Assembly (NCBI GenBank): GCA_965197905.1
Contig: CBDAOB010000003.1
Location: forward strand, 608,001-672,000
Length of the DNA stretch: 64,000 nt
DNA from: Candidatus Latescibacterota bacterium
GTDB taxonomy: Bacteria > Latescibacterota > UBA2968 > UBA8231
Direction of reading: 5' to 3'
The notes beneath the pieces were generated by a model that saw nothing but the letters and a program-made list of their open reading frames with translations, ran no database searches and was not told the DNA's origin. Of this stretch, positions 1 to 13,470 are shown piece after piece (positions within the stretch are counted from its first letter, which is position 1; each line of letters begins with the position of its first letter). A program made the position numbers and the translations under genes.

Positions 1-297
1 GTGTGAGTCAACGCTTTGACGGAGTTTATTCGTCTGGATTCGGGCAGCGCGTGCAGCGCTTGAGCAACCACAAGCAGAACGAGTGAGGTTGTCAACCTCG
101 TTCCGCTCAAGAGCGCACGCCAAGTGTTATTCGATCGTCCCATAACCCGCTTGTCTCGACAATCTACTAGAATTCAACCAACACTCTCACGGCTAATTTC
201 GTGCCAGGGGGTTGCGCTACTAGACCCCCCAATTTCCGGTGGGAATCGATTTTGCTACTTTTTCGAGCAGATTGATCGTCATGGAGACAACTCGCAG

Positions 298-1778
298 ATG
301 GTAACCACCTTGCTCACCAAGGCAAACCTGCTCCTAACCAGCTGGTTTGCAGGGAGGATCAAGAACAAGATCCTCTTGTCGGTTCTGAGCATTTTTGTCG
401 TATTGTACGGTGCCACGCTAACCTACGTCTACTACCGCATAAAGGCGGATCTGTTGGAGTCCGCCCGCATCGAAGCGGTCAGCACCAGCCAGATCCTCGC
501 CCACTCGCTGTACAGGAACTACGAAATAGAAAACGACATCCGCTCGATTCAGATCGATGTGCTCAGCGCCAAGAAGGACAAAGGCAATATTCTGGAGATC
601 AACGTCATCAACCGGGATTTGGAGGTGGTCAGCAGCACAAACGAAGACAACCTGTTTGACCGGTTCGATAGACAGGCATATGTGGACGCCATTGATAACC
701 GGAGCTCGGTGTTGGTGATCGAGGCCGGAAACGAACCTTTTATCAACGTCGTCTATCCAGTCTCGGCCGGACTATCGGAGAAGAATTTTGCCACCGGTGC
801 GATCGAGATCAAAACCGATCTGAAGAGCCAGTTCGAGAATCTGCAACGCATTCAAATTAATACCGTCTTCGCCGGAATCGTCATCATTATCGCCATCGTT
901 GTGGTTATCAACGCCATCTCCAAATCGATAACGAGACCGATTCAGATGCTTTATTCCGGCATGGGCGTAGCCAACGAGGGGGACCTGGATATCAAGGTCC
1001 CGGTTGTGAGCAAGGACGAAGTCGGATACCTGACCTCTTCCTTCAACAGCATGATCGGGTCCATCAAGGAGTCGAATCAACAGCTGAAAGAGAATGCCGA
1101 AAACCTGGCAGCCCTGAACGCCAAGCTGATGGAGATGATGAAGTCCTCCACCCGGTTCGTGCCCGATCAGTTCCTCCAGTCCCTGGGGAAAAACGACATT
1201 ACCGATGTCCAGCTGGGCGACGCCACCCTGAAGAGCATGACGGTTTTCTTCATGGACATAAGGAACTTTCCGAGCATGTCGGAGAAAATGAATGCCCAGG
1301 ACAACCTGATCTTTCTCAATTCGCTCTTGGAAAGCATCCTGCCCACCATAGAGCGCAACCGCGGATTCATCGACAAGTACGTTGGTGACGCCATCATGGC
1401 CTTGTCCCCTTCCGTCCAGACGATGCCGTCCTTGCCGCCGTCGGGATGCGGGAACAGCTGGCGATTTTCAACGAGGGGCGTGGATCGCGAGGAGACGCCG
1501 CCGTCGATCTGGGCATCGGGATCAATTCGGGAGAGCTGATTCTCGGCACCATCGGCTCGCCAAACAGAATAGATACCACGGTCATCGGCAATACAGTGAA
1601 TGTGGCTTCGAGAATGGAGAGCCTGACCAAAACCTACAACGTGCCGATCATTCTCCCGGAGCAGGTCTTCAACGATCTGGAGCCAGCCACCCGACGCGAT
1701 TTGGCAGTACAGGATCTGGGACCCGCCAAGATAAAAGGAATCGACCGGGAGGTTCGGCTTACCGGCGTGATCTGTTGA
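298..1778 (+). CDS. Membrane-bound class III adenylate cyclase (2 TM, periplasmic sensor, HAMP, cyclase domain); split by a 1-bp frameshift near 1404
   Basis: HAMP motif (TRPI..L...DEVGYL..SFN.M); cyclase motifs FFMDIRNF and DKYVGDAIMA in ORF 124..1539; GIGINSG...DTTVIGNTVNVASRME in ORF 1446..1778. The K (DKY) and D (DTT) residues indicate ATP specificity. One added base restores LFPFRPDDAV. Confidence 0.88.
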
Positions 1779-2463
1779 AACGGAGAGCGTCTAGCTCCAA
1801 CGTCAGCATCGCGCCCGATCCGGTCGGTTGTATTGTCAGGCTTCTCGACTCGGTCAGGGTTACCGAATTGCCCACCACTCCCCCTATTGCTGCCCCCACT
1901 ATGACATCGGAGAGAAAATGACGGTCGTCCTGAATCCGGCCGGCGGCAACGAAACAGCTGAATATGTAGAGTGGTATCCCGACGTCTCGCCCGTAGGTGC
2001 GATGCAGAAAACGGGCAATCGCCACGCTGTTCGCGGTATGACCTGAAGGGAAGGAGAGCTTGTTGCTACCATCCGGTCGCTCGCGCCCTATCGTCACCTT
2101 GATGGGCGCTACCGCCAGTTGCGTCAACACGAGGGTGCGCAGCAAACCCGAGCCGAGTTCGGTCAAGTGACTCCTGCCCGTCGCTTTACCTGCGCTCCAG
2201 ATTCCCAAAGAGACGGGAAGATTGAAGATGCTGGAGCCGTATATGTTCGAGACGCTCGTCGGCCGGTCCAGAATCCGGGATTCCCTGACACCGCTTCGAA
2301 CATCGTCGTCCCAGCTCTGCGCAAATGCCGCCACTCCCAGTCCGGTCGACAGCACGCTGAAGTTTTCGCGGGTACCGATATTGTTCAGGTCCGACCTGAG
2401 GCCGGTTGCCTGGACACCGCTCACCAATACCATGAAGCAGATCGCAGATCTTGCCAACATCAA
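1759..2463 (-). CDS. PAP2-family phosphatase with N-terminal signal peptide
   Basis: PAP2 motifs K.TIGRERP, SFPSGH, R...DRHFLSD. Confidence 0.88.
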   Translation of the reverse strand: MMLARSAICFMVLVSGVQATGLRSDLNNIGTRENFSVLSTGLGVAAFAQSWDDDVRSGVRESRILDRPTSVSNIYGSSIFNLPVSLGIWSAGKATGRSHLTELGSGLLRTLVLTQLAVAPIKVTIGRERPDGSNKLSFPSGHTANSVAIARFLHRTYGRDVGIPLYIFSCFVAAGRIQDDRHFLSDVIVGAAIGGVVGNSVTLTESRSLTIQPTGSGAMLTLELDALRFNRSRR

Positions 2464-2566
2464 TCGAATCTCCTCAAGGACGAATTGTCAGCGCTGAAAA
2501 TCGATCGTACGCCCAATGATGAGCGCTGCCATTTGCCGCAGTTGTAGAGCAGAGTCCGCGCCGAAG

Positions 2567-3262
2567 CTACAGATCCACCTCTTGCTGTCCCATTACCAAG
2601 GCTGCCTTGTTATTCCCTGAAGCAACCTGCACAGCGTGCAGAAAGGTGGGCGGCTCGGCATCCCGCTTGAGCATGACCACGTAAACGAACTCTTGTAGAA
2701 CGCCGCCGGCGACCGACTCCATCGCCACCAGACGCGCCTCGGTGAGGAACTCCTGAAACACCGGTTCGAGAATCGCCTCATGGTCGCTGCCGGGCGCCAT
2801 TCTCAGTCTCAAGATGCGTTCGGTTACCTTCTTGCTGAAGAGGTCGAGCTTGTACATCACGCCGAGGACAGCTGCAAACACGGCGGTGGCGAACGTGGCC
2901 AACATGTAGAATCGGGTGCCGCACGCCATACCGATAGCCATGACCAGAAACATAAAACCCACATCCCTGGTCTCTTTGACCGCGTTGCGGAAACGGATTA
3001 CCGACAGCGCTCCTATGAGCGAGAATGCTCGCGCGATATTGGATCCTATGATCAACATGATCAGCGCCGTGACCATGCCCATTATCACCAGTGTCTGGGC
3101 GAAGGATTGGGCGTACGAGGTGCCCTGATGTGTGGCCCGGTAGACCAGGCCCATTATCAGTGACAGCACGAATCCCAGCGACAACACCAAAGCGACATCG
3201 GTGAATGTGAAGATGCTCGTCACATCCTTGAATCGCTCCATCTCTTTGATCATCTCATCCAA
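2567..3262 (-). CDS. DUF4956-family membrane protein (MgtC-like TM region plus C-terminal ACT-like domain)
   Basis: Signature IGSNIARAFSLIGALSVIRFRNAVKETRDVGFMF; adjacent to a VTC gene as is typical of the family. Confidence 0.9.
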   Translation of the reverse strand: MDEMIKEMERFKDVTSIFTFTDVALVLSLGFVLSLIMGLVYRATHQGTSYAQSFAQTLVIMGMVTALIMLIIGSNIARAFSLIGALSVIRFRNAVKETRDVGFMFLVMAIGMACGTRFYMLATFATAVFAAVLGVMYKLDLFSKKVTERILRLRMAPGSDHEAILEPVFQEFLTEARLVAMESVAGGVLQEFVYVVMLKRDAEPPTFLHAVQVASGNNKAALVMGQQEVDL

Positions 3263-4019
3263 TTTCGGGCACCTCGTCGAATGTGTCGGGTCTCGGTCCG
3301 GGATTGAGCAGATCTAGCTCCAAAAGCCGCTCTGCGCCAGCACAGTACTTGCTGTACCGCCTCAACGTGCACTGGTGGCGGGCCAGCAGATTTGCAAGCC
3401 AGATCGGAACTGCGTTGTTCGCTTTTACCTCCATTATGACCATCGAGGCTGTCACGAGGCGGTGTTGCGCCATCGAGGTCGATAGCCCCGAACTGGCGCT
3501 CGCTACCCAAAGAGAATCGTCGAAGGTAACTCTGAGACCCGGTTCGTACTGACTGCCTACGAAAGCGGTGCGCTGGTAACCGACGACACACGTGGGCTGG
3601 AGCTCCAACGTCCGGGCAAGAAAAAGAATCTCCTCCGCCGCCGCCCGATCAGCTTCATCGGAAGGGCTCTCCGTGTATCGAGCGGAGCACAGTGCGTAAG
3701 CATCCTCGAGCGGCAATACGACGCGCCTTTTTTGAGTGGTCCGATTGATGCGTTGTTTGATCTCGATGAAAACGGGGCCTCCCTCATCTTCACCGTAGCG
3801 GCGAATTCGAAGCTTGCGGCGAAACTTTATCCCCTCTCGTTTCGACCGCATGAACGACAGATCAGGCGTATCGTAATAGAGGCTCGAGATGTTGTAGGTA
3901 CCCTCGGCGGTACCGTGGGAGTCGGGCTGCATGTTCCGCCGCAAGTCCTCTTGGATTTCGGGTAGTCGTTGAGCCGCGATGACATATTTCAGCTCGAAAC
4001 GGTTGAACCTCTTTAACAT
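3255..4019 (-). CDS. VTC-domain polyphosphate polymerase (CYTH/TTM fold)
   Basis: RFELKY, SLYYDTPD, RRKLRIRRY, FIEIK, YQRTAF, RVTFD, MEVK and YSKYC motifs. Confidence 0.92.
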   Translation of the reverse strand: MLKRFNRFELKYVIAAQRLPEIQEDLRRNMQPDSHGTAEGTYNISSLYYDTPDLSFMRSKREGIKFRRKLRIRRYGEDEGGPVFIEIKQRINRTTQKRRVVLPLEDAYALCSARYTESPSDEADRAAAEEILFLARTLELQPTCVVGYQRTAFVGSQYEPGLRVTFDDSLWVASASSGLSTSMAQHRLVTASMVIMEVKANNAVPIWLANLLARHQCTLRRYSKYCAGAERLLELDLLNPGPRPDTFDEVPEIG

Positions 4020-4022
4020 GCC

Positions 4023-4574
4023 TTATCTAAACTCCAACATCATAGGACGCGCGCCGGTCGAGTCGCTCTTCTTCGTCTTCTTCTTCACAGCTCGCTGGAC
4101 GGACACCTCGATAAGTTGTGGAAAGTGACCGTCATCCGGCAAGCGCCAGGAAAACGCCTCGTCATTCTTGGTCTCTCCTGAAACAGTCGAGGCGGCAGTC
4201 CTCATCTTCATTTCTATCCTTTTCCCAGTGGTCGTAGAGATCAGCAACCTCCCGTCAGCGAGGGGAGACCGACGCACGGCGTAGGCGTATCCCAGATCGA
4301 CAACACCGCCCAGGTTGGAGGATATGATGCCGCTGTTGGCATCGTCCAACATCGTTCTGGCTAAGTCTGGGTAGCTGTTCAGCACATCCTGGAAGAGATC
4401 GAACTCTTCACGTGATAGCTGCTGACGTTCACCCAGCTCAAGCTCCAGGTGCATCGTCCATACCTCTTCCAGTGGCGGCGTTCGCAACCCCCAGGCGATG
4501 AAGACCACGCTGCAGACAGCAGTGGCAACCAGCAGCAGAAATCCTGAACCCGGCCGTTTTCGATACGGAATCAT
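4023..4574 (-). CDS. Hypothetical single-TM membrane-anchored protein
   Basis: N-terminal hydrophobic helix (FLLLVATAVCSVVFIAWGL); translationally coupled between the CotH and VTC genes. Confidence 0.65.
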   Translation of the reverse strand: MIPYRKRPGSGFLLLVATAVCSVVFIAWGLRTPPLEEVWTMHLELELGERQQLSREEFDLFQDVLNSYPDLARTMLDDANSGIISSNLGGVVDLGYAYAVRRSPLADGRLLISTTTGKRIEMKMRTAASTVSGETKNDEAFSWRLPDDGHFPQLIEVSVQRAVKKKTKKSDSTGARPMMLEFR

Positions 4575-7430
4575 CACAGTTTGGGTCTCCGGCCGTATCG
4601 AGTCGCATAAACCCCGAATTCGGACCATTCGGGCAGTCCCAACACATTTCGGGCGAGATGAGCCAGGGCCCCGTTGGTGGGTAACGCCCGACGAATCTGG
4701 TCAACCTCGATCCGGCTCCCGCGGGCTCGTTTGATCACCTGCTTGCAGGCGACCGCGAAAAGATCGTTGGCACCTATGCTGCTGTCGCCGGTGTAGTGGG
4801 TCTCTCTCCATTTGGTCTGGAGCGCGGTGGTGGTGCCGTATATCAGGCTGCGGGAGATTCTGACGTGTGAGTCGTTTTTCGAGAGCACTCCGGTTTCGCT
4901 GTCGCTGAGAAAGAGACCATGGGCATTCACTTCGCTCTCTTCGCCGACGGATACGGCGTTGCTGGTGCAGGACTGCAGAATACTGTCCGAAACAATAAGG
5001 TTGACCCCCATCAAGTCGAGACAATCGTCGCCGGCCCCAAGCACGTGAAGCCCGCGAATAGCTCCCTGGGTAAACTCCAGATCGACGCCATCGATAGGAG
5101 CTTGCTGGATGTCTACCTCATTCAACCGCAGGTTTTTCACGTAGGTCGCGTGCAGTACGTTCTCGGCCTCGCTGATGTCGTAGAAGCTGACCCCTTCGAC
5201 AACGATATCTTCGGTGTCGTAGATGTTGAGCAAGCTCGGGTAGTCGACTCCGATCTTTCCCACCTTCGTACCGCCTGCGATGTGCATCTGCTTGAGCCGC
5301 GAACCTGCGGACGCGGGACCCTGTATGGCGATGCCTCCGAATGCCGCCCCGGTCTCTGCGGGTCCGACGACGATTGGGTGCGCGACCGTGCCCTCACCGG
5401 TAACGCGGCCATGGAATACGAGACTGGCGTTTTCGCCCATGGCAATCTTCGTGTCGGGAGCGATGATGACCTGCTGGTGCGACCGGTAGACTCGAGTCTC
5501 GGGAACCTTCACGATTCCAGGACCCAGCTGAACGATCTCGGGCGACGGTTGGACTCGATAGCTCCAGGGATGCGCAGATCGCTGTCCCGACGCGAAGCTC
5601 GGAACGCTGTCCGCGTGAGGCAGTGTATCTAAGGTGTGTGGATAATCTGTCCGCTCGACCAACAGCGCCAGCCGACTCGACCCTCCGGTGACTCGATTGT
5701 CGAGAACCAGCGCCACTTCCTGGGGCGGGCAGTCGCACCGCAGCAGGTAAGAAAAGGTTCGTGACTCATTGACCACCCTCACCGTGCCCCGTTTGGGACG
5801 CGGCTCGGCGCGATCGACCACCCGAGCTCCCGCCAGCAACTGCCGATGACGGCGCAGTGCCGTGGTGCGGCCAATAACGCCGGAGGCGACGACGGGATCG
5901 ATCGCGACATCGAGAGCGCCGTTTTGATTCAGATCGGCTCTGAGCTCGAACGGCCCCGAGCAGGATGCACTCACTGTGATTTCCCGCAGGTCATGGGCTC
6001 CATGACCAGTGACGCGAAGGTCGAGTCGCGCGACGGCCGCCTCGACCAGGCCGGCAGTGCCGCTGATGTTTGGGCGTTCGAGGGTGTCCAACAGGTAACG
6101 GACCCGGCGGCTGTAACCATGTATCTCGTCTCGCGCGGCCAGGAGCCACTTGGAGGCGGTCATGGGACGCACCATGAAGCGATGAAAGCGGGAGACCCTT
6201 GGCAGCAGCTTGTAGGCGTCCCAGTAGGGATCCGGCCTGCAGGTCCGGAGCCATTTCTTTGAACAGCTGATTGGCACGAGTGCGGATGTTCGGTACGGAA
6301 GCCTGATTTGACAGCAGAGAGAAGACAGTGCTATCCCGCAATGCCAGGTACCCCGGGGTCATTTTCAGCCTGATCAAGAGCGGATGATCGATATAGTTGA
6401 ACTCGGGGTCGTGTTTGAATCCTCTGAAACTCCAGGCTATCGGTTCGAACTTGCCGCGGTATGGATCGAAATAGAACTTGTGGTTGGAGAAGTAGTCGTG
6501 CTCACTGCCACCGAAGACGACATCGAGTGCATCGAACATGGCGTAGCGATGAAGATCGATAGTTCGTTCGGCATACTCGGCGAACGCGAGGAAACTCGCC
6601 TCCTGCACGGCTCCAAGCAGCTGATCTAGGGGTCCGAAATCGTCGCCTTCTCCGCCCGACTGTTTCGCCACCTGTTTCCAGCCCTTCCGGGAGAAAAAAA
6701 GACTGCCTACTTGCAGGGTGGAGTCGACGAGACCCGTATCGCCGGAATAAAGGGCACCGGGCATGCGCCGACCGCGTCGCAGAAGCCCTTCGACCGGTTG
6801 CGCAGCGTACCGATAAACGCCCATGTCGTTGTTGTTCAATCGGAGTCGGACCACGTCGTACTCGGGAGTGAGCAAACCCAGTTCGCGAGAAACGTCCAGA
6901 ATGATCTGCTCTTCCAGACCGAACGGAGTGGGATCGTTCACGAGATTGAAGATGCGAGTACCGTCGATGAGATCGCCGCGATCCAGGCGCACCTTCATCG
7001 ATTTCTGCGGCCCCAGCCAGTGCCAGGGTTTGCTGCCCCGATAGCGAACTCTGACTTCCCGCATGGTCCCGTCCTTTCGGACGAACGCGTCTACGTACTG
7101 TCGCGCCTCTTTGCCAGCCAACTGACGATTCAGGCCGTCGAGGTTATCCCGAGTCAGAGAAAGAGCAAAAGTAGGCAGGGGGTTCGATTCCGGACGGGCA
7201 GGGAGAGAGATGCGGCGTAGATCGCGGGTCAGTTCGTCATGCAGCGCGATCTGAAATAGTTCGACGCTCCATGGGACCTGTTCGCCAGAGGCGCGGCCGT
7301 AGCGATCGATCTGCGCATAGGCAGACCAAGCGTACCAAGCAACCGCAAGCACCAGCGGCAAACTCAGCAGTATTCCGCTCGGAGGACTGAGTTTGTAGAG
7401 TCGGTATCCTGGACGACTCGTGGGTCCCAT
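4574..7430 (-). CDS. CotH-kinase-family protein fused to a C-terminal right-handed beta-helix; split by a frameshift near 6232
   Basis: N-terminal TM; CotH-like RYRG...QKSMKVRL, V.LRLNNNDMGVY, N.KFYFDPY.GKFEPIAW; beta-helix repeats (DGVDLEF, GDDCLDLMG, AVSVGEES, GVLSKNDS). ORFs 5991..7430 and 4574..6277 join at QA/DPYW. Confidence 0.82.
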
Positions 7431-7468
7431 GGAACGTCTCTCTTAGCTTGCGCTCTGGTGCAACGGAA

Positions 7469-8535
7469 TTAGAACCGAACCAGGGACCACAGGTAGAATC
7501 TGCCGGTATCGACAGCGCCCCTGAATTCGTAGTTCATCAATACGCGAAAATCCTCGTTCCGTTCGCCATAATACGCGCCCACGGTGACGCGGACATCCTG
7601 CGTATCGTTGATCGAATCGTAGCTGAGTACCGGTCCGATCCCTCTGGATGACTTGCCGACGAAGGTCATGTAGTACCCGTGAATCGTTTCTTTGTCGCCC
7701 CTGTCCTTGTGTTTTCCGATGGCGAATTCGCCGTTCAGGTCGAAGCGGTCATGATCGAGAAAGAAATCGGTGCCGGCGCGATCGAATTTTACGAAGTAGC
7801 CGCCATCATAAATAGGATTGTTGCTGGTCTCGAATTTGTCACCATGAGCGGCGCTCGCGCCCAGAGTCCATTTGTAGCTTTCTTTCCGGAGAGTCCTACG
7901 CGACCGGACAGATTCTTGGCTTTGTTGTCGTCGCGCTGGGCGTTCATCCCAGCACCGTTGACAACCGAAAAAGCGTAGTCCAAGCGGGCTCCGCCACCTT
8001 TGGGCCCCTTGCCGATCAGGGTCACGCCGATGTCGCGGAGGTTTATGCCGCGAGAGAGTTCGTCCGCCATCTCGGGGCGGTTGACCACGTACAACCGACT
8101 GGATGAACGCTGATTGATAAAGCCGAACTTCACCTTGTGCTGGCCCAACCGCAGGGTATGCCTCTTGTTGAGCTTGACGTTGAAGAAGGCGTCGCGCAGG
8201 GTGCCGGCGTGGTCCGGTGCCCGGGGATCGACGTCGATTTCGTAGGTAATGCGACTGTTGACCCTTCCTTCCACACCGACGCGGGCCCGCTGGACCCGGA
8301 AGCGGAATTCGCCGCCGCCGATGGGATAGTTGAAATGGTTCTGCATATATCCAGTCACTTTCGGCTCGTCTCCCACTTCGAGTTCCTCGTCGACCTCGCT
8401 GATGGCGAAGCCGCGGCTACCGATGCTGGCAGTCAGCAGAAGTGCCAGAGCAGCTATCCCGCGTACGCCGCGGCGACCGGGAGCGCGAACAGACTGGCCC
8501 CGGAGCTCCTGCAAAACCCTCAATCCTCGGATCAT
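7469..8535 (-). CDS. OprO/OprP-like phosphate-selective porin; split by a frameshift near 7880
   Basis: Signal peptide; FRVQRARVGVEG, LRDAF, GQHKVKFG, RDIGV, NGAG.N..DDN..K...GRV motifs; the second frame continues SYKWTLGAS...YLWSLVRF with a terminal Phe. Confidence 0.8.
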
Positions 8536-8853: not shown

Positions 8854-10002
8854 CTAAAAGATGTATTCGGGGCCGACAAAAATGATGTGATCGAAGTAAT
8901 CTTCCACGTCAGAGGTCGATGCGTTCATCCGAAACAGATATCTCGTCTTGATGTTCAGGTTCGGCTTCCACTTGAACTTGAGGAATGATGAGGAGAGAAA
9001 GAGCCAGTCGGTTCGTTTCGGTATGATGATTCCTCCGTCATCTTCGTCCTCCCAGCTCTTGTGAATCAGCTCCTCGTATAGAGAGATGGAGGTCCGGTCG
9101 TTGAAGCGATAGGTGTAGAGCAGGGTGCCCTTGTGTTTGAGCAGATCGAACTCAGCGTCGATATCCTGGCTGTCTTCGTGTCCTTCGACCTCTCCGATGC
9201 GTCGGGGGTCAAACTCCGAGTTGTCCCTTTGCTGCATCAGGGTTCCACTGAAAACATGGCGGTTTGACATCAGCCAGTCGAATCCGGCCCGAACTGTTCG
9301 CCTCGAACCATCTTCCAGAATCTGCGATGGATCTGCCTCGTCGGTGTTGGCCGTGCCCTCGTACCACTGGAGATCGACGGAATAGTAGGTGGTCAGCTTG
9401 AAGCTCCACGTTGTGCGCACTTCCACGAAACCTCCGTTAACCGAATAGTCGAGCCAACGGGATTGTGGATAGCGCGTGCGGATGTTCTCCAGACCCACTT
9501 GAACCTGCCACAGCGGTGACAGGGTGCGTTCATAGGAGAGGATTCCAGTGTGGCGCAGGAAATCGAAATCATCGTCGTCCGGCACGGCGAGATACCGCAC
9601 TTCACTCGAGAGATTTAGGGCGTCGGCTCCGGATCGACGGGTAAGGGACAGGTGCGTGCGATTGAAAAACCAGTCTTCGGACCGATGCTCGGTGTGAAAG
9701 TTCGCATGACCGGTATAGCTAAGATCCAGCCACCAGTTCGGCCCCCAGGTTTGCTCCAGGCGGAGATTGGCCGTGGGTTCGGCGATGAAGGCGTCCTTCT
9801 GATCCTGCCCACTCTTCTTCTCGTCCACCAGGTCGAGATTGGAGTTGAACTTTCCATAGATGCCCGCCGAACCAGACACCTTGAGAGCGTCTGCCTCTCG
9901 AGCGTTGTCATCGGTGGTGCCAGCCTGCGCCTGCCCTTCAAGGAGAAAGACGCAAGGAACGAGAACCTGCAGACATGCTGATAGACCGCGATATGGAATC
10001 AT
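8854..10002 (-). CDS. Outer-membrane beta-barrel protein of unknown function
   Basis: Signal peptide ending AQA; alternating aromatic/polar strands; acidic loops; C-terminal GPEYIF. Confidence 0.75.
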   Translation of the reverse strand: MIPYRGLSACLQVLVPCVFLLEGQAQAGTTDDNAREADALKVSGSAGIYGKFNSNLDLVDEKKSGQDQKDAFIAEPTANLRLEQTWGPNWWLDLSYTGHANFHTEHRSEDWFFNRTHLSLTRRSGADALNLSSEVRYLAVPDDDDFDFLRHTGILSYERTLSPLWQVQVGLENIRTRYPQSRWLDYSVNGGFVEVRTTWSFKLTTYYSVDLQWYEGTANTDEADPSQILEDGSRRTVRAGFDWLMSNRHVFSGTLMQQRDNSEFDPRRIGEVEGHEDSQDIDAEFDLLKHKGTLLYTYRFNDRTSISLYEELIHKSWEDEDDGGIIIPKRTDWLFLSSSFLKFKWKPNLNIKTRYLFRMNASTSDVEDYFDHIIFVGPEYIF

Positions 10003-10586
10003 CGATTTTCATCCTCTTGGCGTCGGAGGTGCTCTGCCGTTCGATTGTATTCCTGCAGCAGGTCTTGCAGGCGCGTTAGTTCCACCTTTACCAACGAGAG
10101 CGATCTTGTCAGTCCCTGTACGCGTTGAGCCGCAACCCTGCGACCCTCGCGCATGTTGTGCAGGCGTTGTTGAAGCTGGAGATCGCCACCTCTCTGAACC
10201 TTTGCCAGGTCATCCAGCACCTCGATCTGGATTGCGAAGGACCCCTGGCGATCGGTCCATTCCGCCATCGCGGAGGTCAGCCGAATCTGCTCCGCCATCA
10301 GTGCGTCCAGACGGTCTTTAATAATGTCTGATTTCTCGAGGATATCATCGGGGCCATCCAGTTCCCTGAGGGTGATAGCGGCGGTCAGGTCGCGCCAGCT
10401 CAGCCAGGCAAACGCCGGATCTCGAGATGCGCGCGTGGAGTCGATCGCGGTCGCAGGTTTGATGGCTGCCCTCGATGAGGAATCGGAAGCCACCGAGTCG
10501 ACCACCGCCGACTGCGCCGTCAGCGTAGACGCTCCGAAACAGACCACCGCCGTCGTGGCAACGATGTAGGCGATAGGACGTGTCAT
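9999..10586 (-). CDS. Secreted coiled-coil hypothetical protein
   Basis: Signal peptide (MTRPIAYIVATTAVVCFGASTLTA) then heptad-rich helices; stop overlaps the downstream start. Confidence 0.65.
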   Translation of the reverse strand: MTRPIAYIVATTAVVCFGASTLTAQSAVVDSVASDSSSRAAIKPATAIDSTRASRDPAFAWLSWRDLTAAITLRELDGPDDILEKSDIIKDRLDALMAEQIRLTSAMAEWTDRQGSFAIQIEVLDDLAKVQRGGDLQLQQRLHNMREGRRVAAQRVQGLTRSLSLVKVELTRLQDLLQEYNRTAEHLRRQEDENR

Positions 10587-10596
10587 CACGCGATGG

Positions 10597-11979
10597 TTAG
10601 TCTTCGATGCCGTACTTCTTGAGTTTGTAGCGCAACCGATTGCGATCGATGCCGAGCATCTTCGCAGTGCGCGCCTTGACCTTGTCGGACTTCTCGAAAG
10701 CATGAAGGATGAGTCGCCGCTCGTAATCGTCCATTTCCCGATCGAAATCCACATCTCCCTCCGGCATCGAAAGATTGGTTTGGCGGCCGCTATCGAGGCT
10801 CACGGGGAGCGCGTCGTCACCGATTTCATCCGTTTCGCTCAGAATCGCCGCCCGCTCGATGACATTCTGCAATTCGCGGATATTTCCTGGCCAAGCGTAT
10901 CCCATGATGATCTCCATCGCCCGCCGCGAAAGACCGCTGATATTTCGCTTCAGGCGGGCGGATTGAAATCGGCAAAAGCTCTCTACCAACGCCGGCACGT
11001 CCTCCATTCGCGCGCGCAGGGGAGGAAGCGAAATGGAGATCACGTTGAGTCGGTAGTAGAGGTCTTCGCGAATCTGACCTTCCTTGACCGCCACCGTCAG
11101 GTCCCGGTTGGTAGCCGCGATAATGCGGCTGTCGAGATGCAACGTTTTCGTACCTCCCACCCGCTCGAACTCACGCTCCTGCAGCACGCGAAGCAGCTTG
11201 ACCTGGATATCCGGGGGAATCTCGCCCACTTCATCCAAAAACAGGGTGCCCTTGTCAGCCAACTCCAACCGCCCCAGCTTGCGCGACACGGCTCCGGTAA
11301 AAGCCCCCCTTTCGTGACCGAAGAGTTCGCTTTCCAGGACCCCTTCGGCGTAAGCGGCGCAGTTTGCGGCGACGAACGCGTCGCCGCTACGGGGACTCTC
11401 CCGGTGTATGGCGCGCGCCACCAACTCCTTGCCCGTACCGCTTTCCCCGTGGATCAGCACCGTCGAATCAGTGGGAGCCACCTTGCGAATGTCATCGAAT
11501 ACCTGATTGATCGCCTGGCTGTTGCCGACGATCTCCCCCATTCCCAGTGGATTGGACTCGTCTTCGAAGGAGGCAATGCGGGCGTTCATCCGCTCGAGCT
11601 CCAGCACCAGCTCGCGCTGAGCCGTGGCGCGCTCGAACTTCACCCTTAGTTCCTTGTCATCGTACGGTTTGGTGAGGAAATCGAAGGCGCCAAGCTTCAT
11701 GGCCTCAACGGCGGTTTCGACGCTGCCGAAGGCGGTAACGACGATGACGATCACCTCGGGCCAGCGACTCCGCACCGTGCGCAGGAGCTCCATTCCGTCG
11801 AGATTCGGCATGCGAAGATCGGTGACCAGAAGATCCACCGTCTCCTCCTCGAGAACGGAAAGCGCTTGCACCCCGTCGTAAGCGGCGGTACTGGTGTGGT
11901 TCCAGCGGTTCACCAGCGCGCAAAGCGTCTCGGTCGTGGTTCGGTTGTCATCGACGATAAGAATGTTGGCCATCTTCAA
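10597..11979 (-). CDS. Sigma-54-dependent response regulator (REC-AAA+-Fis HTH; NtrC/AtoC/ZraR family)
   Basis: ILIVDD, DLRMP, GESGTGKE, ESELFGHERGAFTGA, LFLDEVGE, WPGNIREL, C-terminal HTH. Confidence 0.96.
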   Translation of the reverse strand: MKMANILIVDDNRTTTETLCALVNRWNHTSTAAYDGVQALSVLEEETVDLLVTDLRMPNLDGMELLRTVRSRWPEVIVIVVTAFGSVETAVEAMKLGAFDFLTKPYDDKELRVKFERATAQRELVLELERMNARIASFEDESNPLGMGEIVGNSQAINQVFDDIRKVAPTDSTVLIHGESGTGKELVARAIHRESPRSGDAFVAANCAAYAEGVLESELFGHERGAFTGAVSRKLGRLELADKGTLFLDEVGEIPPDIQVKLLRVLQEREFERVGGTKTLHLDSRIIAATNRDLTVAVKEGQIREDLYYRLNVISISLPPLRARMEDVPALVESFCRFQSARLKRNISGLSRRAMEIIMGYAWPGNIRELQNVIERAAILSETDEIGDDALPVSLDSGRQTNLSMPEGDVDFDREMDDYERRLILHAFEKSDKVKARTAKMLGIDRNRLRYKLKKYGIED

Positions 11980-11982
11980 ATC

Positions 11983-13470
11983 CTAACTGGGCGAGAGGCG
12001 ATCGGCCGGCAGATGAATTGTGAATCGGGCGCCTCCTGCGGGTAGATTGTCCGCCTGGATTCGGCCGCCGTGCTCGACTACGATTTTCCGCGCATTTGCC
12101 AGACCCAGTCCGGTGCCGTCGGCTTTGGTGGTGAAGAAAGGATCGAAGAGATGCGGCAGAACGTCCGGCTCGATGCCGGAACCCGAATCTTCGGTTATGA
12201 AGTCCAATCCACCATCGTCCTCGGAGCGGCTCAAATAAACCTTCACCTTTCCCCCATCTGGACAGGCCTGGATGGCGTTCATGACGATATTGAGCAAAGT
12301 CTGTTCCATGCGCAGGCGATCGATGGAAATCGCCGACCGTCGATCGACTTCCGCCAGTTCGAGGGTGACGTTTCTGGTGCTCGCCTCTACGGCGGCCACA
12401 TCGATTACGGTGACGACCAGATCGGCCGCCACCACTTGGTCGCGTATCAGGGTCACCGGACGAGCATAGGTCAGGAACTCTTCGATGAACCGATTGAGCT
12501 TGCCGATCTCGTAGTGCAGCGTATCGATCGTTTTCCGGTGACCAGGCTCTTTCTCCACACCGAGCTGCTCGTCGAGCAGAGCGATCAGCAGTTTGATGGA
12601 GTTGAGAGGGTTGCGAATCTCATGAGCCACGCTGGCCCCCATCTCCTTGAGGGCGGCGTCCCGCGCTCGCACCTGCTCCGCCATGCGGTTTATCGCCTCG
12701 CCCAGTATTCCCACCTCATCTCTGGAATTCACCGAGGCCCGGGCTTGATAATTCCCCGCCCCCAGGCGCTCGGCCGTGAGCGCCATCTGCCGTACAGGAG
12801 AGGTGATGCTGCGCACGAACAGCAATGCCAGCAGACAGGCCCCCGCGATACAGAGAAAAGTGATGAGGTAGAGGCGCGAGCGCATCTGCGAGATGAGCGC
12901 CAGCTCGCCGGCGCCGGCATCCACCCCCACGATGGCAGCCAGCTTTCCGTGTGCATCGGTGACGGGAGCGTAGGCCGAAATGAAGAACTCGTCTCCTGCG
13001 GCGAGGTATCCAGTGGTGTTGACCGAGCCTCCCGCCGCGAGTTGGTCGCGCATGACCCTGGTCAGGTGCGGAAGATCCACGCGACTTCCGATCAACCTGT
13101 CGTCTATGTCCAGCAAGCTGAAGCCGTCAGGGCGAAACAGGCCGATGCGCGCAACTCCGGTTGCCGCTTGAATTTCCTGCAGCTTCTCCTTTTCCCGGCG
13201 CACCATTCGGGTCTGGTCATCGCCGACGCGAATAAGCTGCAGCCGTTCGATCGGCGTGCTCTTGGCGCCGATGCGCGCGATGTACTGCAGCTTGCGCCCC
13301 ACCTCCCTCTCCAAATGCCCTTTGGCGGTGTTGAAGAAAAGGAGCCCGATCCCACCGGAGATCAAGAGGATTATGAGGATGTACTGGAGCAGCTGTTTGG
13401 CATAGATGGACCGGCCCATGAATTGCCACCACCTGGGGCCCGAATGCCTCTCCATCACCCTCGGCGTCAC
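11983..13470 (-). CDS. Membrane sensor histidine kinase (periplasmic sensor, HAMP, HisKA, HATPase)
   Basis: Two TM; AHEIRNPL H-box; NAIQA, DSGSGI, FDPFFTTK, GTGLGLA. Confidence 0.95.
   Translation of the reverse strand: MTPRVMERHSGPRWWQFMGRSIYAKQLLQYILIILLISGGIGLLFFNTAKGHLEREVGRKLQYIARIGAKSTPIERLQLIRVGDDQTRMVRREKEKLQEIQAATGVARIGLFRPDGFSLLDIDDRLIGSRVDLPHLTRVMRDQLAAGGSVNTTGYLAAGDEFFISAYAPVTDAHGKLAAIVGVDAGAGELALISQMRSRLYLITFLCIAGACLLALLFVRSITSPVRQMALTAERLGAGNYQARASVNSRDEVGILGEAINRMAEQVRARDAALKEMGASVAHEIRNPLNSIKLLIALLDEQLGVEKEPGHRKTIDTLHYEIGKLNRFIEEFLTYARPVTLIRDQVVAADLVVTVIDVAAVEASTRNVTLELAEVDRRSAISIDRLRMEQTLLNIVMNAIQACPDGGKVKVYLSRSEDDGGLDFITEDSGSGIEPDVLPHLFDPFFTTKADGTGLGLANARKIVVEHGGRIQADNLPAGGARFTIHLPADRLSPS

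Follow-up and report, generated by a model that had tools for sequence, protein, structure and literature searches.

A conserved VTC–DUF4956 gene module with a porin and a CotH-fold/beta-helix protein, a candidate route for polyphosphate export in Latescibacterota and Myxococcota

In the yeast VTC complex (Vtc4/Vtc3/Vtc1; PDB IDs 3g3q, 8i6v and 7ytj), the catalytic chain joins a tunnel domain to an SPX domain and membrane helices, and each VTC subunit contributes three helices to a pentamer, according to the accessible part of a recent preprint (10.1101/2023.01.27.525886); the available portion of another source treats VTC for eukaryotes only (PMC10657179). In bacteria, a trio of cotH, polyphosphate-polymerase and DUF4956 genes has been noted beside Gram-positive pel loci (10.1101/768473), and VTC and CotH genes lie in the NELoc-2 locus of C. 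perfringens (PMC2879425), with no transport mechanism given in the parts of these two sources that are available. The S. intermedius trio is SIR_1592-1594, and the accessible text reports that the trio was not found outside pel loci (PMC12345266). Our literature search, which covered titles and abstract openings and had most subscription papers outside its reach, returned no bacterial VTC–DUF4956 export of polyphosphate (polyP) and no porin-type version of such a system. Here we describe a six-gene run in a stretch of 64,000 nucleotides (nt) from a Candidatus Latescibacterota genome (the window, G000:C3:608001-672000, G000 being the genome), in which a stand-alone VTC enzyme is encoded next to DUF4956, a membrane partner that is apparently not homologous to that of yeast; modules of this kind are real and conserved.

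The run occupies positions 8535-1759 on the minus strand and contains, in order of transcription, the following genes (aa, amino acids):

7469..8535, minus strand: Porin_O_P (OprO/OprP-family) outer-membrane porin gene; PF07396, E 9e-13; signal peptide; split
4574..7430, minus strand: CotH-fold/beta-helix gene; PF08757; N-terminally anchored; 951 aa if unbroken; split
4023..4574, minus strand: 183-aa anchored protein without a named family; one hydrophobic segment, 12-30
3255..4019, minus strand: stand-alone VTC domain, Vtc4-like triphosphate tunnel enzyme; PF09359, E 4e-48; intact
2567..3262, minus strand: DUF4956, MgtC-like membrane protein; PF16316, E 1e-14; intact
1759..2463, minus strand: PAP2 acid phosphatase with signal peptide; PF01569, E 2e-15; three catalytic motifs

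The order, shared orientation and tight spacing given by the first-pass annotation of this DNA were confirmed: 38 nt separate the porin and CotH genes, the CotH stop codon overlaps the ATG of the small gene, 3 nt lie between the small gene and VTC, VTC and DUF4956 overlap by 8 nt, and DUF4956 and PAP2 are 103 nt apart. Pfam matches above the curated cut-off were obtained for five of the six genes (Porin_O_P, CotH, VTC, DUF4956 and PAP2).

Five of these genes, encoding Porin_O_P, the CotH-fold/beta-helix protein, the 183-aa protein, VTC and DUF4956, form a conserved module whose linkage spans Latescibacterota, Myxococcota and metagenome loci. The 183-aa protein served as the marker of this module type and defined 20 loci (L039 and L040 counted as one; L045 and L177 appear closely related). 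VTC lay directly after the small gene in 20/20, and the CotH/beta-helix gene was present, whole or partial, in 16, the other four contigs ending before it. Porin_O_P was found nearby in 13 of the 14 loci long enough to judge, scored with a rebuilt porin profile together with Pfam; it was not found in L004, lies on the opposite strand in L179 and falls below the cut-off in L003. Eight new loci, picked without regard to VTC, all had VTC as the next gene. The small protein itself is sparsely distributed, occurring in 6/401 and 5/301 sampled genomes of the phylum and the order, respectively, of the Polyangiaceae metagenome-assembled genome G042. Intact copies of the module were identified at L003, L038, L165, L174, L176 and L178-L180.

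The sixth gene does not share this linkage. As proposed, the PAP2 protein is by sequence a signal-peptide phosphatase, with a Pfam match and the PAP2 catalytic motifs Kx6RP, PSGH and Rx5Hx3D at residues 122, 139 and 176. It was present in just 2 of 14 small-protein loci with at least 2 kb downstream, both of one genus, and its homologs, found in 31 of 76 family genomes, adjoin VTC in three. On these counts PAP2, which the first-pass annotation had included in the system, was rejected as a core gene, and it is instead a lineage-restricted accessory gene; the survey of gene neighbourhoods thus upheld the linkage of the other five genes and not that of PAP2.

The pairing of VTC with DUF4956 extends well beyond the marker loci. 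We took the 80 best of 539 confirmed metagenome loci with DUF4956, a few of them duplicates. In 59 of the 64 with at least 300 nt upstream, VTC is directly upstream of DUF4956, and a single-protein query of genome contigs gave 5 loci. The 40 metagenome loci with at least 2 kb downstream continue into CotH (23), Cthe_2159 (7), both (1), a PD40 propeller (2) or none of these (7), and one carries PAP2. In L054, L056 and L064 a PD40 beta-propeller gene follows VTC–DUF4956, and in L054 and L056 PhoU-like and PiT phosphate transporter genes follow as well. Many loci with the trio have no pel-like gene among their annotated neighbours, whereas the published account reports not having found the trio outside such loci.

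VTC was detected in 41 of 168 genomes of the window's phylum, and the 45 regions fetched from this phylum contain DUF4956 in 44 cases, HlyD-like and/or TolC genes in 39 and CotH in 32, as scored with profiles that were partly built from the same loci, with examples confirmed by Pfam. Several of these loci have adaptor and TolC genes inserted between DUF4956 and VTC, and no other pump, and in others an HlyD-like gene directly precedes VTC, the slot that the small protein occupies in the window. DUF2490 takes the place of the outer-membrane part in three myxobacterial loci, and some neighbouring CotH proteins have tails of the type IX secretion system kind, below the Pfam cut-off. Since adaptor and TolC occur here with no other pump, the direction of export would be outward. 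The partners of the core share exported phosphotransfer or polyanion-binding folds (CotH, Cthe_2159, exported dikinase), and the most economical reading is that the product of the VTC–DUF4956 core is needed outside the cytoplasm and that the outer-membrane part (TolC, Porin_O_P or DUF2490) is interchangeable.

The VTC protein of the window is a stand-alone protein of 254 aa, in which the VTC profile covers residues 6 to 232; it has no hydrophobic segment and, unlike the yeast catalytic chain, neither SPX domain nor membrane part. Its profile matches the Vtc4 structure 3g3q (E 3e-9), and the two share the tunnel domain and all nine catalytic residues. The Vtc4 residues that bind triphosphate or metal and are required for polyP synthesis, K200, R264, R266, K281, Y359, R361, E426, S457 and K458 in the available text of 10.1101/2023.01.27.525886, align with K11, R71, R73, K88, Y148, R150, E197, S223 and K224 of the window protein, and all nine are invariant across 119 sequences. 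The same text gives K458 as absent from the inactive Vtc2 and Vtc3. By alignment, the window VTC thus has an intact Vtc4-type active site, in line with its earlier designation as a VTC polymerase, and is predicted to make polyP. G000 also encodes PPK1 and PPK2, and the usual store of polyP in the cytoplasm therefore does not depend on VTC. A prediction of the complex of VTC with two DUF4956 copies scored 0.01, which is no answer and is counted neither way, and no VTC–DUF4956 fusion was found among the open reading frames (ORFs) of the fetched loci, the longer proteins of the large database lying outside that search.

The structural model of DUF4956 (predicted local distance difference test score, pLDDT, 80) has five predicted membrane helices followed by a C-terminal ACT domain. 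The Pfam MgtC profile reaches E 0.0016 and 19.2 bits against a cut-off of 31.4, and thus stays below it, while the ACT part matches 7qa5 (Z 8.3) and 2lqj (Z 8.2), both C-terminal domains of MgtC, at the level of other ACT domains. The modelled protein is MgtC-like in architecture and does not resemble a Vtc1-type subunit in its predicted layout; the Vtc1/3/4 membrane domain was not among the structure matches listed for the model, the lists being filled by ACT-type matches, and the ESM Atlas returned single-family DUF4956 clusters only. What the module does share with yeast is a genetic link between VTC and a small membrane protein of several helices that carries conserved basic residues: R78, R90, R92, K96 and R99 of DUF4956 are invariant in 118 sequences and may line a pore. 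Five helices and an ACT domain nevertheless set DUF4956 apart from the three-helix contributions of the VTC subunits, and the periplasmic and outer-membrane partners of the module have no yeast counterpart. Salmonella MgtC resembles DUF4956 in combining a membrane domain with an ACT domain and in its link to phosphate handling; it differs in that the Pfam MgtC score of DUF4956 is below the cut-off, and in that MgtC acts through PhoR, the abstract mentioning no VTC partner (PMC6658541, seen in part).

The small protein has a single N-terminal hydrophobic segment (residues 12-30), which bears out its description as a small anchored protein, and 228 relatives among 50%-identity representatives; no Pfam, NCBIfam or usable ESM Atlas match was obtained. 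It is likely a periplasmic adaptor. Compared with HlyD-like proteins it gave a best E of 0.08, with no detectable kinship, and the equivalence of the two is one of gene position only. The porin scores 48.6 bits against the Porin_O_P cut-off of 20.9 and begins with a hydrophobic signal segment. At L038:10090-12120 the module porin is fused behind a PDZ domain.

The architecture of the CotH-fold/beta-helix protein was examined on its unbroken ortholog from L001, the nearest locus, in G002 (Latescibacterota, same genus; DUF4956 95% identical). The model (pLDDT 93) consists of an anchor, a CotH fold, a beta-rich middle domain and a right-handed beta-helix. The CotH fold matches B. cereus CotH 5jda (Foldseek E 1e-15; TM-score 0.81 on the target), with a profile match to 5jd9 at E 1e-14, and the best structural match of the beta-helix is AlgG (4nk8; Z 28.6, root-mean-square deviation 2.0, 265 residues aligned), the next match having Z 27.2. 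An N-terminal anchor or signal segment precedes the CotH fold, from which the protein is predicted to be extracytoplasmic, as had been supposed, rather than cytoplasmic.

According to the passages available from PMC12189002, adenine is stacked between Y142 and W245 of CotH, which also has equivalents of PKA D166, N171 and D184. We counted the corresponding residues in 121 rows, L001 and the best 120 of 185 matches. The equivalents of D166 and N171, D312 and N316, are kept in 115 and 112 rows; the spacing between them is one residue shorter than in 5jd9, for which reason D312 is a presumptive assignment of the catalytic Asp. At the adenine-stacking positions, residue 228 is Tyr or Phe in 117 rows and W333 is kept in 84. 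We take the likely metal-binding Asp, the PKA D184 equivalent, to be the Asp after Trp245. Asp follows the stacking Trp in 5 rows and Glu in another 5, the window copy having Ser, and the second Asp of the CotH motif, two residues on, is Arg (R336) in 114. Other CotH domains from VTC loci retain the Asp after Trp in 30 of 31 cases. In the beta-helix, D780, D783, E785, D801, D805 and E830 are conserved in 119 rows, the remainder being gaps. This pattern indicates that selection maintains the whole of the beta-helix groove but only some of the kinase site. The window clade thus has the fold of the B. cereus kinase, with catalytic Asp, Asn and adenine-stacking aromatics largely retained, and departs from it in having Ser, Gly, Asn or Ala for the Asp after Trp245, Arg for the second Asp, a catalytic loop one residue shorter, and an added anchor, middle domain and beta-helix.

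Judged by these residues, the CotH fold of the window clade probably serves as a scaffold and not as a kinase, and its earlier reading as an ordinary kinase is doubtful. We consider it unlikely that the clade is a polyP-fed kinase that phosphorylates a protein or glycan held in the beta-helix, with Arg replacing the metal site. The intact fold, the conservation of D312, N316, R336 and the stacking aromatics, the resemblance of the beta-helix to polysaccharide-acting enzymes and the glycosyltransferases that adjoin the related CotH/beta-helix loci L051 and L053 would all suit such an enzyme. The rarity of the Asp after Trp, set against its retention in the other CotH domains of VTC loci, argues otherwise, as do the second CotH gene, encoding a lipoprotein, in L165 and L173 and the fact that the flanks of the small-protein loci, where annotated, showed no gene for glycan synthesis. 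In another module type (L157, L167 and L168), the CotH/beta-helix gene is followed by one for a protein of ~350 aa with a signal-like start, by appearance only a possible metallophosphoesterase, and L157 has glycosyltransferase-like neighbours.

Exported PPDK_N (dikinase) proteins, mostly with a lipoprotein signal, are encoded in nine small-protein loci. We compared their distribution with that of VTC in 301 genomes of one order, which are mutually kin, using a query from a VTC locus and defining the close subfamily by E below 1e-150. VTC is present in 31/31 genomes with the close subfamily, in 19/83 with distant matches only (the unpublished G650 among the 83) and in 10/187 with none. In fourteen loci picked for linkage, the dikinase lies beside TolC-, DUF2490- or porin-type modules; the His motif is present in 19/19 exported dikinases and the ATP-grasp motifs are kept. 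That the dikinase replaces CotH in L045 was considered and rejected, as in L178 an identical gene order runs on into a porin and CotH/beta-helix. In two VTC loci (L187:4589-5905 and L192:7650-9155), the gene directly after the exported dikinase encodes a DUF2252 protein that begins with a signal-like segment and may be another exported phosphotransferase. A DUF3108-like lipoprotein family also occurs after DUF4956 or beside VTC in many myxobacterial loci, with examples at L003:10706-11392, L045:5226-5912, L047, L049, L178, L179, L189 and L190.

The ATP-grasp and His motifs of these dikinases, together with the metal-binding Asp kept in most partner CotH domains, would also fit the export of a smaller phosphoanhydride (ATP, pyrophosphate or triphosphate) in place of long polyP, which would fuel ordinary extracytoplasmic kinases. 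VTC, however, retains the full Vtc4 polymerase set, including the equivalent of the K458 lost in inactive Vtc2/Vtc3, and we give this explanation very little credence.

We infer polyP synthesis, its translocation and direction, and the roles of the periplasmic parts as follows. VTC, with the requisite residues in place, would polymerise the gamma-phosphate of ATP on the cytoplasmic side of the inner membrane. An oligomer of DUF4956, through basic residues that are invariant, would provide the membrane passage that the Vtc1/3/4 helices form in yeast, and its ACT domain would be a control point. The anchored 183-aa protein would act as an adaptor, its gene occupying the position where sister modules encode an HlyD-like protein. 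Without the likely metal-binding Asp and with an Arg two residues on, the CotH-fold/beta-helix protein would bind polyP rather than serve as an ATP kinase and may channel or trim it along an AlgG-like acidic groove, and the OprO/P-family porin would be the outer exit, where sister modules have TolC or DUF2490. PAP2 would be a local extra outside the pathway. The core idea of the first-pass annotation is plausible, and that the intact module makes polyP, passes it through DUF4956 and guides it to the porin is a tentative proposal, to which we assign a little less than an even chance.

By analogy only, this arrangement recalls synthase-dependent alginate export through Alg8/Alg44, the periplasmic protein AlgG and AlgE, since both comprise an inner-membrane polymerase, a periplasmic beta-helix and an outer-membrane porin; the module differs in having no glycosyltransferase, VTC as its sole polymerase-type gene and a porin of another family. 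The Gram-positive pel accessory trio has the same three-gene core, the same MgtC plus ACT reading of DUF4956 and a secreted CotH, whereas the window module lacks pel genes and is diderm, with a porin, an anchored adaptor and a beta-helix on a CotH fold without the Asp of the Trp-Asp pair. A broader proposal, which we regard as possible yet distinctly less probable, is that VTC–DUF4956 is a synthase-translocase that supplies extracytoplasmic phosphoanhydride energy via interchangeable outer-membrane routes and feeds polyP-run exported kinases and dikinases, the porin variant being alginate-like, with a metal-free CotH fold and beta-helix as its periplasmic track.

Several observations weigh against export of polyP by this route. 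OprO and OprP are uptake pores. Bacterial VTC has Glu (E9) where Vtc4 has Thr, and E9 fits the ExExK motif of hydrolytic tunnel enzymes; its retention means that VTC may have hydrolase activity. Genes for PiT, Na/Pi cotransport and phosphatases occur in the flanks of some loci, and a 305-aa class of DUF4956 occurs without adjacent VTC (L133-L135; G035, G033 and G004). AlgG leads many other beta-helices by just 1-4 Z units, and a shared beta-helix fold shows no function. The counted genomes are kin, and some profiles were built from loci that they scored. MgtC, the nearest characterised relative of DUF4956, is not a known channel and acts by binding proteins such as PhoR, in the accessible part of PMC6658541. 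In S. intermedius, loss of the DUF4956-like SIR_1592 or of the CotH protein SIR_1594 lowers aggregation by >50% in artificial sputum medium and the two deletions shift Pel levels in opposite directions, while no such drop is reported for the VTC gene SIR_1593 in the passages available, although figures or supplements may hold values (PMC12345266, seen in part); a linear pathway fits these uneven phenotypes poorly. As a separate observation, the ~305-aa DUF4956 class of L133-L135 has an Omp85-family gene on one side and a gene for a phytase/apyrase-like beta-propeller on the other.

Some of these points would be accommodated if the module worked inward, the porin, the beta-helix protein and phosphatases capturing and trimming external polyP or pyrophosphate, DUF4956 admitting short chains and VTC hydrolysing or re-storing them. 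The membership of the porin in Porin_O_P, the PAP2 gene at the window locus, the PiT and PhoU-like genes of L054 and L056, the Na/Pi cotransporter, purple acid phosphatase and phytase-like propellers at other loci, E9 of VTC, and the indirect promotion of phosphate uptake by MgtC (PMC6658541, seen in part) are all in keeping with uptake. Most phylum loci, however, couple the same core to HlyD-like adaptors and TolC, and the secreted kinases and dikinases linked to it would consume rather than supply phosphoanhydride, which makes an inward module improbable in our view.

Equally, DUF4956 might translocate nothing and act as an MgtC-like regulator, with VTC as a cytoplasmic triphosphatase or local polyP maker, the two together tuning envelope enzymes or a two-component system according to phosphate status. 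The MgtC-like architecture with its ACT domain, the two-component genes that flank many loci including that of the window, and the uneven S. intermedius phenotypes are consistent with such a role. It would leave unexplained both the adaptor and TolC genes placed between DUF4956 and VTC without another pump and the interchange of three outer-membrane barrels, and we attach a low probability to it.

The copy of the module in the window is itself broken. Relative to L001, used as the reference for breaks, a deletion of 4 nt near 7877 splits the porin gene and an insertion of 1 nt near 6232 the CotH gene, two breaks that the first-pass annotation does not mention, and as encoded in the window the beta-helix half of the CotH protein and the C-terminal strands of the porin (366 aa in the unbroken L001 ortholog) are lost. 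The CotH/beta-helix fusion described by the first-pass annotation thus stands for the intact sister-species protein and not for the window copy, and its OprO/P-like porin stands in family and signal, although the gene is split. The CotH break lies within gap-free contigs of X1 and X2, and the porin break within such contigs of X1-X4, which represent two samples of two studies, one sample being possibly the source of the window genome; the CotH insertion is absent from one X4 contig. A ~98%-identical strain (runs X5/X6, one sample) has both frames whole, and X10 has a whole CotH frame. Because gap-free contigs of two samples carry both breaks and the ~98%-identical strain is without them, the breaks are genuine and recent, and assembly error is ruled out. 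The steps after membrane passage, the CotH/beta-helix guide and the porin exit, are disabled in G000 by these frameshifts, and with two of its genes broken the window copy is a poor test object.

Ratios of nonsynonymous to synonymous substitution rates against G002 are 0.07-0.17 for the porin, CotH, the small protein, the 3' part of VTC and DUF4956, and therefore the module genes were under purifying selection until recently; flanking genes have similar values (0.06-0.22). Damage was seen in 5/5 Latescibacterota genomes with the DUF4956 subtype of the window. In G002, VTC carries a 16-nt duplication, a single deletion has cost DUF4956 its stop and PAP2 its 5' half, and a transposase-like ORF is inserted. 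DUF4956 and the CotH tail are each spread over two frames in G012, and in G006 DUF4956 is spread over two frames without VTC alongside, the single-base breaks of these two draft genomes being known from assemblies alone. G015 has intact VTC, DUF4956, PAP2 and porin genes; the CotH/beta-helix gene was not found there with the query used, and the small gene was not found in L118 or L170. In ten loci of other lineages, every matched gene is in one frame and free of stops. Within G000, split genes account for 4 of 12 near the locus and for 2 of 44 elsewhere (p 0.016, for a region picked after the fact).

The module is flanked by an adenylate/guanylate cyclase gene and a two-component block, and is not contiguous with pelDEAFG. 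The upstream co-oriented block (8854..13470) comprises:

11983-13470, minus strand: HAMP histidine kinase (Pfam)
10597-11979, minus strand: sigma-54 response regulator (Pfam)
9999-10754, minus strand: exported helical protein; no Pfam match
8854-10002, minus strand: predicted outer-membrane barrel of 382 aa, upstream of the porin; no Pfam match

This block is retained near VTC, DUF4956 and the porin in G002 and G015, the kinase lying outside L001, and the 382-aa predicted barrel adjoins the porin in G015 too (L118). It possibly has a regulatory role, outside the module core. The HAMP adenylate/guanylate cyclase gene (window 124-1778, plus strand) is convergent with PAP2 and split by a 1-nt loss near 1404, a polymorphic break for which contigs of X3 and X4 carry the intact allele. 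Left of the window, at G000:C3 about 606600-607800, is a gene for a 392-aa exported protein (L001:13020-14195) with no Pfam or NCBIfam match and a weak match to the porin only; it is split in G000 by a 1-nt insertion and is also found near the module in G015. A promoter and terminator scan of the locus gave signal at chance level.

If the proposed mechanism is correct, the module would constitute a PPK-independent bacterial route to periplasmic and surface polyP and a source of phosphoryl donor for the secreted CotH-type kinases of non-sporulating bacteria, and it would assign roles to DUF4956 and to an adaptor family that has no name as yet. Being compact and available in intact form, the porin-type variant is amenable to heterologous expression.

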